Under the pieces are notes generated by a model. The model was not told the origin of the DNA, did no database searches, and was given only the letters and a program-made list of their open reading frames with translations. Below are positions 32,076 to 61,505 of a DNA stretch of 64,000 nucleotides, piece after piece; position 1 is the first letter of the stretch, and each line of letters starts with the position of its first letter. The stretch spans positions 184,946,001-185,010,000 of the forward strand of contig OZ024740.1 of the NCBI GenBank assembly GCA_964016885.1, given 5' to 3'. The position numbers were made by a program, and so were the translations under genes. This stretch comes from Eledone cirrhosa (Eukaryota).

Positions 32076-32678
32076 TTAAAATACAATATGTTGAAAAGGT
32101 AACTCACTAGAGAGAGATATACAGTGCGCTATCAATAAAACAGGGAAAAAAACCACCAGTGTTTGGAATATATAACACTTCTCTGAGTGGCTTTGGGCTG
32201 CCCTTTCTAGCAGTTAGTCCCTCAGAGGCCACTGGTTCACTGCTCTTAAACACGCTGTGACTTCTCTCTCCCACTTGTAGCTGGACAGTCACTTTTAAAA
32301 TTCTCTTAGTGTTGTCTGAAATGTATAGCCTTACACACGCTGATGAACCGAGGCTAACCCATTTCTTTCAACAAATTACTGGTGAAACATATCTTTGGAT
32401 TAGTATCTTTGGATTTGTACGTGTGTTATATAGTTATAGAGGTATTTATTTACACTTTAATTTATATTTTTAATTATCGTGTCTATAGTCTGCCTTTCAT
32501 AGGTTATATATTCCATACATTGGTGGTTTTTTCCGTTTTATTGATAGCGCACTGTATATCTCTCTCTGGAGTGTTACTTTTTCAACTTATTGTATTTTAA
32601 AGAGCTCAGGATTTCTTCTACTTTGAGCACATTATTTACAGGGAATAGCGAGTGCCAATGCCTCCGTTAATTTATCGT
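32076..32678 (+). mobile_element. Penelope-like pLTR / retrozyme-type insert with inverted partial duplication, in (TA)n
   Basis: 32076-32176 is the reverse complement of 32503-32600. Internal hammerhead; unpaired tail 32601-32678; (TA)n on both sides. Confidence 0.7.
32333..32426 (+). ncRNA. Type I hammerhead ribozyme motif
   Basis: Stem I ACACACG/CGTGTGT; core CTGATGA (32340-46); stem II ACC(G)AG...CTGGT; GAAA (32384-87); stem III ACATATC...GATTTGT; cleavage triplet GTA (32417-19). Confidence 0.78.
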
Positions 32679-32761
32679 GATATATATATGTATATATATA
32701 AATATGTATATGTATATATATGTATATATGTATATATATATATATATATACATATGTATAT

Positions 32762-33091
32762 ATCATCATCATTTCATTTTACTTCCACTTTTCCCTGCTT
32801 GCAAGGGTGGGACAGGAACTGATTCTGGCTTGATTTCTACAGCTGGGTGCCCTTCCTAACACCAACCTCATTTACAGTGAGTGCTGGGTGCTTTTTTGCC
32901 GTGGCACCTCCATGACCACTTTGCAGTGGAATCATAGGGACCCCAGTCCCTATCATCTCATTTCTACAGCTGAGTAAACTGGAGCAATGTGAAATAAAGT
33001 GCTTTGCTCAAGGAAACAGCACATCACCCGGTCTGAGAATTGAACTCACAACCTTTCGATTGCAAGGCGAATGCTCTAACCACTAAGCCAT
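32762..33091 (-). mobile_element. Near full-length tRNA-head CORE SINE
   Basis: Reverse complement TGGCTTAGTGGTTAGAGC...GAGTTCAATTCTC; matches 30326-30675. Confidence 0.88.
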
Positions 33092-33231
33092 ATATATATG
33101 TATGTATGTATAAATGTATATATGTATATATATTCATATATGTATTTATATACCTGTTTTTCTATGCACAGAATCGGCAAATAGCAGCTAAAAATTTTCA
33201 GCATGTAAATATACATAAATATATATGTAAA

Positions 33232-33386
33232 CGTGGTTGGTTTTAGGAAGGGCATCCAGCCGTAGAAACCTGCCAGACCGTCCTATATGAGCAAGACAAC
33301 CAATCTTGCGTCAAGTTGGACAATTCCCGTCTAACCTCATGCTAGCGTGGAAGATAGACGTTAAACGATGATGAAGATGATGATGA
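33232..33386 (+). mobile_element. (ATG)n-tailed retroposon 3' module
   Basis: TGGTTGGTTTTAGGAAGGGCATCCAGCCGTAGAAAC...CATGCTAGCGTGGAAGATAGACGTTAAACGATGATG. Confidence 0.8.
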
Positions 33387-58700: not shown

Positions 58701-59952
58701 GTACGTATATATGTATATATGTATATATATATATATATATATATGTATATATATGTATGTATATATATATATGTATGTATATATATATATATATATATAT
58801 ATATGTATATATATGTATGTATATATATATATGTATGTATATATATATATGTATGTATATATATATATATATATATATGTATATATATGTATGTATATAT
58901 ATATATGTATGTATATATGTGTATATATATATGTATATATATATATATATGTATATATGTATGTATATATATATGTATGTATATATGTATGTATATATGT
59001 ATATATATATATGTATATATGTATATATATATATGTATATATGTATATATATATATGTATATATGTATATATATATATGTATATATATATATATGTATAT
59101 ATATATATATATGTATATATATATATATATGTATATATATGTATATATGTATATATATGTATATATATGTATATATGTATATATATGTATATATATGTAT
59201 GTATATATATGTATATATGTATATATATGTATATATATGTATGTATATATATATATATATATATATGTATGTACGTATATATGTGTATACATATATATAT
59301 ATATATATGTATGTACGTATATATGTGTATACATATATATATATGTATGTATGTATATGTATATATATATATATATATGTACGTATATATGTGTATATAT
59401 ATATATATATATGTATGTATGTATATGTGTATATATGTATGTATGTATATGTGTATATATGTATGTATGTATATGTGTATATATATATGTATGTATGTAT
59501 GTATATGTGTATATATGTATGTATGTATATGTGTATATATGTATATGTATGTATGTATATATATATGTATATGTATGTATGTATATATGTATATGTATAT
59601 ATATATATGTATATATGTAGATATGTATATATGTGTATGTATATGTATGTCTATATGTATATATATATGTATATGTATATTTATATATGTATATATATAT
59701 GTATATGTATATACATATGTATATATATGTATGTATGTATGTATGTATATATGTATGTGTATATATGTATATATATATGTATATATGTATGTGTATATAT
59801 ATATGTATATATGTATGTGTATATATGTATATATATATGTATGTATGTATGTATATATATATGTGTATATATATGTATATATGTATGTGTATATATATAT
59901 ATATGTATGTATGTATATATGTATGTGTATGTATGTATATATGTATGTATGT
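55728..59952. repeat. ~4.2-kb (TA)n/(TATG)n compound microsatellite array
   Basis: Visible directly; it generates the spurious 484-1410 aa ORFs. Confidence 0.98.
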
Positions 59953-60548
59953 AGCTGGTGCTACTGGTAACATGTATCCCAGTACAACCAGTCCCATGGT
60001 CGGGTCGTTGGCGACTACACTGGCAACCCCACCAAGGTTTCTTGGTGAGGAGGGTGACTCTGGACATCCTGCAGGACTAAAAACAAAACCTGTCAAAAGG
60101 CAAAGGGTCTCTTAAGAGTCAATAGCTATCCAAAATCACCAGGAGAGATGACCCCTTAGCCTTTGTCAAGACAGAATTCTAGGAGAAGGAAAACTCTGAT
60201 ATAACACCTGCAACCCTGATGGTATCCAATGATGTTGACTTGTTCTTCTTTTTGGTAAATATCATCGTGGTTAAGAGAGTGGGACTGGCTTTGTGCAGTG
60301 CCTTTGCTCACTATAAAAGCTTCACGGCACAGGCATTGCTTTATATCTGGAGATCTCTGCACTTGTCGTCACATGGTAGCATGGGCCCATCACTATGTGT
60401 CAATAATTGTAACAGGTGTAGTGTTTGGACCAGAGTTTTTAAGTCGCTGGCTGGACTAAAATGTCACACTCGTTCAGCGCATTGGTAGGGGTTCTCCTAC
60501 ATGGATATAAAGTAGTGGCCGTACTCGAAAACGAGTTGGCAGCCACCA
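59953..60548 (+). mobile_element. Internally deleted (bipartite) non-autonomous RTE/BovB-like element in (TA)n
   Basis: Hairpin-rich 5' part with the RTE 5'-UTR-type motif CTAGGAGAAGGAAAACTCTGA. The 3' part encodes a C2H2-like remnant [22 protein letters not shown]. Short 3' stem CTCG-AAAA-CGAG. Confidence 0.65.
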
Positions 60549-60737
60549 TATATATATATATATGTATGTATGCATATATATATATATATATGTATATATA
60601 TATATATATGTATGTATATATATGTATGTATTTATATATATGTATATATATATGTATATATGTATGTATCTATGTATGTATATATGTATGTATGTATGTA
60701 TATATATATGTATGTATATATGTATGTATGTATATAT

Positions 60738-61505
60738 ACACCTCTGCTAAGATTCGGGTCCCTGTGAAAATTTTCTCGCGCCACTCCTGGCCTGACTGTG
60801 GTCTGACATTAATATCGACCTTTCTTCCTCTTTCTTTCTATCTTCCTTCTTGTAGCCATCAACCCTTACTTTTCTACTTCTCACTTCTCTTCCTTCTCTT
60901 CTCCCCTCTTCCTGTCTTCCTCCTGCAGACTTATCTTCCTTCCCCCTCTTGCTTGCCTATATCTGACCGGTAGTAGTTGCGTTTCCTCTTTTAGCTGACA
61001 TTAACCCTGGCTTCTCTTCTTCTTTCTTCCCCCTTCTTCTCTCTCCTTCCTTTCTTTCTTTCTTTTACCGTGCGTCATGAGATTGACGCTAACTTATGTT
61101 CCCATCCCTTTCTGTTTTCGTTTATCTGACTGGTAGTAGCATACTATACACTTTAGCCACGTCACTCCAGGGCGACCGGCTGAGGTTGAAGGAACAGAAT
61201 AGCGGTCGCCCGCGGGTCCTCGATTTTCCGCCCCATGGATTTCATCTATTACATTCACGTATAATATTTCGAATACCTGATGATATCACCGGATTCATAC
61301 GGAACCCGGTCATTGAAATGATCATAGTATAATAAACCTTTCAAGGATTTACACAAATCCAGCCTCCTGTCATTTCATTCTAATATTTAACTTTGTAATA
61401 GCACCACCAACTACAAAAACAAAGACGGTTGAACTGCCTTACGTTGAGTACGATTGACCATACGGAATAGACCAGCTCTATACAGTGGTGAACATCAAAC
61501 CTGAA
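60738..61505 (+). mobile_element. Penelope-like pLTR / retrozyme-type insert in (TA)n
   Basis: Non-coding; long pyrimidine-rich leader (60820-61070); hammerhead at 61273-61330; (TA)n-type flanks. Confidence 0.62.
61273..61330 (+). ncRNA. Type I hammerhead ribozyme motif with palindromic stem III
   Basis: ATAC-CTGATGA-TATCACCGG..CCGGTCATT-GAAA-TGATCA-TA-GTAT. Confidence 0.72.

Follow-up and report, generated by a model that had tools for sequence, protein, structure and literature searches.

Targeting of TA repeats is established for the Hydra, Naiad and Neptune groups of Penelope-like elements (PLEs), and insertion into (TA)n is given for 26 of the 27 Hydra families listed in the available part of the PMC8557442 supplement. 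Hydra-clade proteins carry RWK and DKT motifs and a CxCX5C linker, with no CCHH motif. An inverted truncated copy combined with a tail is the published signature of a PLE insertion (PMC8557442, PMC11167929). Hammerhead-bearing PLE remnants in TA repeats are a general phenomenon that is already known, including for TA-targeting Hydra-clade PLEs. A second class of related elements, the metazoan non-LTR retrozymes, has been proposed to depend on PLEs (PMC7229834; bioRxiv 10.64898/2026.07.22.740005), a dependence so far argued, in the accounts available, from co-occurrence and pLTR phylogeny. According to the same body of sources only one PLE has been reported active in vitro. The Poseidon PLE of Anolis cuts and extends both strands of AT-rich DNA in vitro, and its tail is bounded by two internal RT start sites that are located at a stem-loop (PMC11167929).

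We analysed a 64-kb stretch of DNA (the window) in which five ORF-less, hammerhead-bearing inserts, numbered here 1-5, had been proposed from the letters alone to lie within (TA)n microsatellites. The coordinates and the (TA)n on each side were correct for all five, and the longest stop-free stretch in any frame was 31-86 codons, consistent with the absence of ORFs. Their anatomy was resolved as follows.

32076..32176, minus strand: insert 1, inverted partial copy of 32503-32600, without the tail (101 nt, 89% identical); its outer end adjoins (TA)n, and 120 reads of sequencing run X10 run on into TA
32175..32678, plus strand: insert 1, main copy, 504 nt of a ~552-nt unit
32333..32426, plus strand: insert 1, type I hammerhead motif (stem I 7 bp, core 32340-32346, GAAA 32384-32387)
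After 32419, plus strand: insert 1, predicted cleavage site
32601..32678, plus strand: insert 1, tail of 78 nt with a bulged hairpin at 32604-32630
33540..33772, minus strand: insert 2, main copy, no tail seen
33575-33645, minus strand: insert 2, hammerhead (stem I 8 bp, core 33637-33631, palindromic stem III)
33773..33860, plus strand: insert 2, inverted partial copy of the hammerhead 3' half and the end (87 nt, 95% identical)
33912..33970, minus strand: insert 3, inverted arm, a fold-back with a 1-nt spacer (59 nt, 93%)
33972..34108, plus strand: insert 3, main copy, with a hammerhead 3' half at 33988-34017
34031-34108, plus strand: insert 3, tail, with a hairpin at 34036-34061
54824..54899, minus strand: insert 4, inverted arm with its own hammerhead motif, core at 54891 (76 nt, 92%)
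54907..55047, plus strand: insert 4, main copy, with a hammerhead motif at 54911-54948
54983-55047, plus strand: insert 4, tail, with a hairpin at 54987-55008
60739..61504, plus strand: insert 5, no inverted copy; its CT-rich 5' 490 nt may or may not be part of the element
61273-61330, plus strand: insert 5, hammerhead (stem I 4 bp, palindromic stem III)
61445-61451, plus strand: insert 5, 3' word only of the tail motif

The hammerheads were located with a descriptor (CUGANGA, stem II of at least 2 bp, GAAA, stem III, UH, stem I of at least 4 bp) applied to both strands of the 64 kb, a kind of search that the sequence-only reading had suggested genome-wide. Five cores were detected, every one inside insert 1 (+32340), 2 (-33637), 4 (+54915 and -54891, one in each arm) or 5 (+61277), compared with a mean of 0.06 and a maximum of 1 when the 54 kb of sequence outside TA was dinucleotide-shuffled 100 times; a palindromic stem III occurred in 0 of the 100 shuffles. 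The claim of a type I layout in all five inserts therefore stands for four, as insert 3 carries a 3' half only. Rfam, which had also been proposed as a check, returned no hammerhead match at E<=10 for inserts 1-4 or the 3' 404 nt of insert 5. Its scan of the whole window was dominated by TA and miRNA matches among the 150 of 381 that were listed; the miRNA and plastid-UTR matches on inserts 3 and 4 were below the gathering score and were set aside as reflecting the fold-backs.

Insert 3 was originally thought to have a variant core, and this did not hold up: it lacks a canonical core, and its motif consists of C-GAAA, a 5-bp helix III and GUC at 33988-34010, beginning 16 nt from the fold-back point. 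We read it as a probable truncated half, since truncation accounts for the motif and what looks like stem I is simply the fold-back. The proposed minimal form with a palindromic stem III was found, as a 6-nt palindrome, in inserts 2, 4 and 5 but not in inserts 1 and 3, which have a long helix III of 5-6 bp, broken in insert 1 by a 14-bp duplication. The spacing from core to GAAA is 31-37 nt in inserts 1, 2 and 5. In insert 4, stem II is only 2 bp, and the two hammerhead motifs lie on opposite strands, one per arm. In inserts 4 and 5 the core is followed, and GAAA preceded, by a U, as is often the case in Hydra-clade hammerheads (PMC8557442). A Naiad origin was considered and rejected: Naiads lack a canonical hammerhead, yet full motifs are present in four inserts. 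By eye, the inserts showed no likeness to the 3' ends of two octopus Naiads.

An inverted partial duplication was confirmed in four of the five inserts (insert 5 being the exception), with arms 89-95% identical. In inserts 1, 3 and 4 the main copy extends past the inverted copy by 65-78 nt, forming a tail on one side, compared with the 30-40 bp reported for PLE tails in the available part of PMC8557442. The inserts thus show features by which PLE insertions are recognised: an inverted 5'-truncated copy in 4/5, a one-sided tail in 3/5 and, in insert 1, varying joints. With Hydra-clade PLEs (PMC8557442) they share the (TA)n target, a sense-strand type I hammerhead near the 3' end and the inverted truncated copy; the combination of (TA)n target and canonical sense-strand hammerhead near the 3' end is not exclusive to that clade. 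Unlike those elements, they have no RT-EN ORF and no sequence match to the published families in the part of that source available. The window yielded no PLE ORF, and none was tied to any of the inserts. Two points do not fit the PLE layout, the missing tail of insert 2 and the missing inversion of insert 5.

Fold-backs of this kind could instead be DNA transposons of MITE type, or could have arisen by repair or misassembly where TA tracts are fragile, in which case the hammerheads would be incidental. Insert 2 does resemble 87-bp terminal inverted repeats, and there are further palindromes in the window, two of them around TA spacers. However, the arms differ by 5-11%, which argues against assembly echoes; the asymmetry and tails do not suit terminal inverted repeats; and the hammerhead and hairpin motifs occur above chance and on one common strand. 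A MITE identity was rejected because inserts 1, 3 and 4 are asymmetric, insert 5 has no inverted copy and the joints of insert 1 vary. For insert 1, this group of explanations is largely refuted by the other copies described below, and overall we give it almost no credence.

The (TA)n-flanked architecture is indeed common to all five inserts, but as a shared character it discriminates poorly, because double TA flanks are frequent in the window. There are 27 segments of 100-1000 bp between TA arrays, including the five inserts, and seven more of them match repeats elsewhere in the window; LINE and SINE-like fragments are also flanked by TA on both sides. One TA-sited LINE fragment has an inverted duplication of different geometry, in which the 5' end is duplicated. 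LINE RT ORFs are present in the window, and a homologue search with a LINE ORF retrieved APE-RT proteins, the few named homologues being mostly from marine invertebrates.

A lack of primary-sequence similarity among the inserts was upheld by BLASTN, the best pair being inserts 2 and 5 (19/22 nt, at stem III), but not for the tails of inserts 1, 3 and 4, which share a structured motif. Each of these tails begins with the same bulged hairpin, showing compensatory changes. A hairpin descriptor, made after viewing these insert sequences, gave 3 matches in the window versus 0.23 expected, all on the hammerhead strand and 3-5 nt into the tail. The hairpin arose in 3-4 of 5000 shuffles per tail, and strict matches numbered 0 in 390,699 bases of control loci. 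Folding predictions return it as the best structure for insert 4 (z -2.4), in part for insert 1 and not for insert 3. By eye, the same bulged hairpin was also seen at the ends of four of six Hydra-clade consensus sequences (Hydra-2_Amil, Hydra-1_Ajap, Hydra-2_Ajap and Hydra-1_Crog) in the available part of the PMC8557442 supplement; the sole octopus Hydra family there differs in its hammerhead and lacks the hairpin at its ends. The terms 'hairpin', 'stem-loop' and 'palindrom' have 0 occurrences in the main text of PMC8557442, and we found no earlier report of the tail hairpin in a search of openly accessible papers. In the PMC8557442 supplement (Craig 2021), six 12-mers from inserts 1-5 had 0 occurrences.

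Four sequencing runs (X1, X5, X9 and X10) provided evidence on copies, TA flanks and joints for insert 1 only, and these bore out the prediction that it belongs to a multi-copy family with TA flanks. Matches were found in 2090 X1 contigs, 1732 of them less than 99% identical, and in 2469 X10 reads, of which 2429 were less than 99% identical; TA loose ends were seen at both termini (120 reads; 6 contigs). Twelve of the 15 joints listed are single X1 contigs that link an insert 1 arm to varied places or switch strand. A head-to-tail joint, 32678->32175 with 48 letters between, was present in one contig each of X5 and X9, two of the four runs and from two other, related organisms, and gives a unit of ~552 nt. 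No contig in these runs spans two hammerheads, and no RNA run was among those listed. The window itself contains no tandem array of inserts. The helix III duplication of insert 1 is missing from other copies: a 14-letter gap at 32390 is seen in 53 of 181 reads and in one X5 contig. At 32620, where C completes the inner stem of the tail hairpin, 254 of 257 plus-direction reads carry that base. Among the 38 variable positions listed, none fell in the 27 positions of stem I, core, GAAA and UH, and 8 fell in the 29 positions of loop II. Two versions of the stem II 3' strand were among the listed variants, unphased with the partner strand.

Since a ~552-nt unit cannot hold an RT gene and the inserts have no ORF, they can be at most non-autonomous or truncated PLE members. 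One possibility is that every insert, even insert 1, is what remains of the 3' end of an autonomous PLE after 5' truncation, with the 552-nt tandem a chance partial tandem. Most PLE insertions are 5'-truncated, leaving lone hammerheads (PMC4209133), the tandem joint is absent among the joints listed for the organism designated A, and inserts 2-5 may have such an origin. For insert 1, however, the same joint with the same 48-letter gap occurs in two different organisms, 198 X10 reads share one common upstream sequence at 32175 that ends in the tail-hairpin word TTGAGC, and there is no ORF end in the 165 nt upstream of the core. We therefore consider it unlikely that truncation explains all five. 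The many diverged copies, together with the head-to-tail unit in two related organisms, suggest that the insert 1 family is likely a non-autonomous, retrozyme-like passenger.

Like metazoan non-LTR retrozymes (PMC7229834; bioRxiv 10.64898/2026.07.22.740005), the insert 1 family is ORF-less and has a type I hammerhead and, judging by the X5 and X9 joints, apparent head-to-tail units, although its unit is longer than their 170-400 nt. Insert 1 itself stands alone in TA as one copy whose inverted ends are of PLE type, which the available parts of those accounts do not show. This likeness, with the LINE RT ORFs and TA-flanked LINE fragments of the window, raises the alternative that the inserts are circular-RNA retrozymes put in by the abundant APE-RT LINEs rather than by PLEs. 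Against it, the available parts of PMC8557442 and PMC11167929 describe duplication and inversion of the 3' end with a tail on one side as specific to PLEs, and in the LINE fragment it is the 5' end that is duplicated. The tail hairpin is also matched at the ends of Hydra PLEs, and insert 1 is not unusually self-paired (z -0.94 over 504 nt), self-pairing being a mark of the abundant circular RNAs of retrozymes. We regard LINE-mediated movement as very unlikely.

A pattern scan for insert copies found none in viral contigs or prokaryote genomes, and an insert 3 20-mer scanned against metagenomes gave no copy. A general pattern of core, GAAA and TA matched 109 metagenome loci from 19 of 64 parts of the set, of which 0 passed the stem filter used for the window with a palindromic stem III; these loci are mostly chance. 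Among eight of them chosen for the best stems, the 195 nt around the motif had an inverted match in four and direct repeats occurred in one; 7 ORFs of at least 120 aa were present, in 4 loci.

The best reading of these data is the one first proposed, that several distinct families of PLE/retrozyme type insert into TA, as supported by the insert 1 copies and the layout of inverted copy plus tail. On the combined analysis, the five inserts are probably old, inactive insertions made by PLE enzymes, most likely of the Hydra clade, with the insert 1 family likely non-autonomous. By extension from the lizard PLE in vitro, an RT/GIY-YIG protein would bind a tandem transcript and cut both strands of the self-complementary (TA)n. 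Reverse transcription would begin at two fixed internal sites, 65-78 nt apart, which would account for a tail at one end only, and two truncated copies would join head to head at a variable point. On this model the next tandem unit would begin with the tail, whose conserved bulged hairpin may position the enzyme. Tandem transcripts from source copies would be the substrate that the hammerhead processes; its formation in the genomic copies seen here is predicted to be blocked by the fold-back. Poseidon differs from the inserts in being autonomous and of another clade, with a stem-loop that is AC-rich and inside the ORF (PMC11167929). As for inserts 2-5, these too may be passengers; alternatively, each may be the truncated 3' end of a full-length PLE.

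What is new here is the bulged hairpin common to three tails, a candidate cis signal for the copying enzyme that would be testable. More tentatively, and with some doubt, unrelated ORF-less hammerhead RNAs could be SINE-like passengers of Hydra PLEs, recruited via one hairpin at the start of the tandem unit that sets two RT start sites. These findings bear on which enzyme moves animal retrozymes and which RNA feature a PLE protein recognises. A passenger of ~550 nt that has insertion ends of PLE type, together with a hairpin kept by compensatory change across passengers and Hydra PLEs, offers a minimal substrate and a specific testable mutation, and the hairpin and hammerhead together provide a marker for finding ORF-less repeats of this kind. 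If the Hydra-PLE passenger reading is true, the inverted-plus-tail ends would be direct genomic evidence that PLE enzymes move animal retrozymes.

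The inserts work like a Penelope-like element (PLE) insertion. All five lie where the sequence-only reading had placed them, with TA on both sides, and no sign of coding was found in any; because they carry no ORF, membership among autonomous PLEs was rejected.

32076-32678: insert 1; tail hairpin at 32604-32630
33539-33860: insert 2
33912-34108: insert 3; tail hairpin at 34036-34061
54824-55047: insert 4; tail hairpin at 54987-55008
60738-61505: insert 5

The inverted partial duplication claimed for four inserts was found in inserts 1-4, each a main copy joined to an inverted copy (arm) of its 3' part, with 89-95% identity between the two. 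The hammerhead strand was directed toward the outer ends in every case. The tail, by which the main copy outruns the inverted copy, measured 78 nt in inserts 1 and 3 and 65 nt in insert 4, compared with 30-40 bp at one end in the PLE insertions described by Craig et al. 2021 (PMC8557442), which also have an inverted 5'-truncated copy. Separately, the CT-rich 5' part of insert 5 (60803-61139) contains internal direct repeats spaced 160-190 nt.

A type I hammerhead descriptor (CUGANGA, stem II, GAAA, stem III, UH, stem I) run on both strands of the 64 kb returned five cores, all within inserts 1, 2, 4 (both arms) and 5. Shuffled sequence gave a mean of 0.06 cores and never a palindromic stem III, and none of 109 metagenome loci, chosen as pattern matches to the core, GAAA and downstream TA, passed the stem filter together with a palindromic stem III. 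Rfam models did not match the inserts' motifs. The claim of a hammerhead in each insert thus held for inserts 1, 2, 4 and 5 but not for insert 3, where the proposed variant core was rejected: all that is present is GAAA, a helix III of 5 bp and GUC, starting 16 nt from the fold-back point, and the motif is a truncated hammerhead half. Among the families (copies related to each insert), helix III is long in 1 and 3 and a 6-nt palindrome in 2, 4 and 5. Predicted stem I pairing for inserts 1, 2 and 5 was 0.87-0.96 in the isolated motif and 0-0.04 within the whole insert; for insert 4 it was 0 in both. On these folding predictions, the genomic copies in the window are probably inert.

The window is AT-rich, with 52 TA arrays, and its repeat landscape may be octopus-like. 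Among the 27 segments of 100-1000 bp between arrays, five are the hammerhead inserts and seven more have repeat matches at other places in the window; since those seven are equally TA-bounded, double TA flanks alone are weak evidence. Two LINE-type RT ORFs are present, the relatives of one being APE-RT elements named mainly from marine invertebrates. Other features are:

37304-38944 (-): APE-RT LINE family, 545-aa open RT stretch
30965-31445 (+) and 61731-62091 (+): 3' fragments of this LINE, 96-99% identical to the RT stretch, both between TA arrays
14218-15450 (-): RT fragment, cut off at a TA array, whose RT core is followed by a PHD finger
30326-30673, 32760-33090, 7441-7698 and others: SINE-like repeat, abundant, with copies about 90% identical that frequently lie between TA arrays; 33033-33090 weakly matches a tRNA
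2251-2627 (377-nt fold-back, 85%), 20478-20581 (104 nt, short TA spacer, 98%) and 52712-52789 (78 nt): palindromes without hammerheads
55683-59950: degenerate (TA)/(TATG) array, 4.3 kb, extreme G-over-C skew
59950-60546: segment richer in GC, lying between TA arrays and having a single 136-nt match at 12499-12632; in our impression it may be a LINE's 5' part

At 30894-31005, the LINE fragment has its first 41 nt repeated exactly, inverted, about a TA spacer; this fold-back is of the 5'-end type, whereas the hammerhead inserts duplicate the 3' end.

The expectation of multiple copies was borne out for insert 1, which was compared with 4 of 12 listed sequencing runs at 80% likeness. The source organism yielded 2090 contigs (run X1) and 2469 reads (run X10), although sequencing depth over the insert does not equal copy number; 1732 and 2429 of these, respectively, were less than 99% identical, and family 1 therefore comprises many diverged copies. 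Other copies continued into TA in six contigs at the tail end and in 120 reads at the tail-less end, the reads being reduced-representation and perhaps derived from a small number of loci. Twelve of the 15 joints listed were single X1 contigs, with the arm joined to differing places or the strand switched, the pattern that an inner joint differing from insertion to insertion would give. A 14-bp duplication in helix III of insert 1 was absent from 53 of 181 reads there, with the gap placed otherwise in more reads, and loose ends (14 contigs, 201 reads) point to a family 1 helix III of 6 bp and a C before GAAA. None of the 38 variable positions listed fell in stem I or the core and eight fell in loop II, which is suggestive of the hammerhead stem I and core being spared from variation.

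In two relatives (seven and five matching records), one contig each left the tail end and, after 48 further letters, re-entered the insert at 32175. This joint implies a family 1 unit of about 552 nt, which leaves no room for an RT gene. It was not among the joints listed for the source organism, where one upstream sequence at 32175 was common to 198 reads. Judged by sequence, family 1 resembles a non-LTR retrozyme, an ORF-less hammerhead retroelement, although its unit is larger than those in PMC7229834. Such retrozymes have been argued, in a preprint (bioRxiv 10.64898/2026.07.22.740005), to derive from PLE pseudo-LTRs.

The tails of inserts 1, 3 and 4 share a motif 3-5 nt into the tail: RCYC, a 4-bp stem with loop, a bulge of 1-2 nt and GRGY-RC. 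As their first pair, inserts 3 and 4 have A-U where insert 1 has G-C, and the inner stems are wholly different in sequence, yet paired. The only mismatch, in insert 1, is private to that copy, with the pairing base in 254 of 257 plus-direction reads. A descriptor, constructed after inspection of the tails it matches, found two strict (0.02 expected) and three relaxed (0.23 expected) matches in the window, none outside the tails; the strict form had no match in 390,699 control bases. RNAfold clearly favoured the hairpin in insert 4 only. In insert 5 only the 3' word is present, 53 nt before the end, and the two strands of the window together contain this word 30 times. By eye, in a consensus file, Hydra-2_Amil, Hydra-2_Ajap and, with one mismatch, Hydra-1_Crog show the same layout at their 3' ends, as do Hydra-1_Crog and Hydra-1_Ajap (twice) at their 5' starts; Hydra-1_Amil has a weak version of it, and none was seen in Hydra-1_Obim. 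Among the other PLE clades, the 3' ends of two octopus Naiads were covered and showed no likeness by eye. That the layout occurs at 5' starts as well as in 3' extensions agrees with the tail being the beginning of the following tandem unit. The hairpin might be a recruitment signal, a reading we hold tentatively and with some doubt.

TA targeting has been reported for Naiad and Hydra PLEs and microsatellite bias for Neptune; canonical hammerheads are present in Hydra elements and absent from Naiads. Frangieh et al. 2024 (PMC11167929) report a PLE protein that, in vitro, cut and extended both strands of AT-rich DNA, with a tail equal to the stretch separating two internal RT start sites; insertion did not require hammerhead cleavage. 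Here, a Hydra-type RT/GIY-YIG protein, placed by the tail hairpin, may cut both strands of (TA)n and prime at two fixed sites on tandem RNA, which would leave truncated copies head to head, one bearing the tail. Hammerheads would process source transcripts, with families 1 and 3 (long helix III) acting as monomers and families 2, 4 and 5 cleaving as dimers or with protein help, by analogy with PMC4209133.

Of eight selected unrelated metagenome loci, four had similar hammerhead-plus-inversion inserts beside TA, so the source genome is not alone in having this layout. Metagenome contigs with hammerhead-like motifs adjoining (TA)n included L104, L026, L016, L027 and L068, four with a nearby inverted partial match; L068 carries a tandem of three copies, each about 110-120 nt. 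Our literature search found no report of a conserved tail hairpin, including by word search of the Hydra paper (PMC8557442), or of a retrozyme-sized unit with PLE-type inverted ends. Collectively, the phenomenon is real and mostly explained by known PLE biology, and these two modest additions, the tail hairpin and the retrozyme-sized unit with PLE-type inverted ends, render an open mechanism testable.
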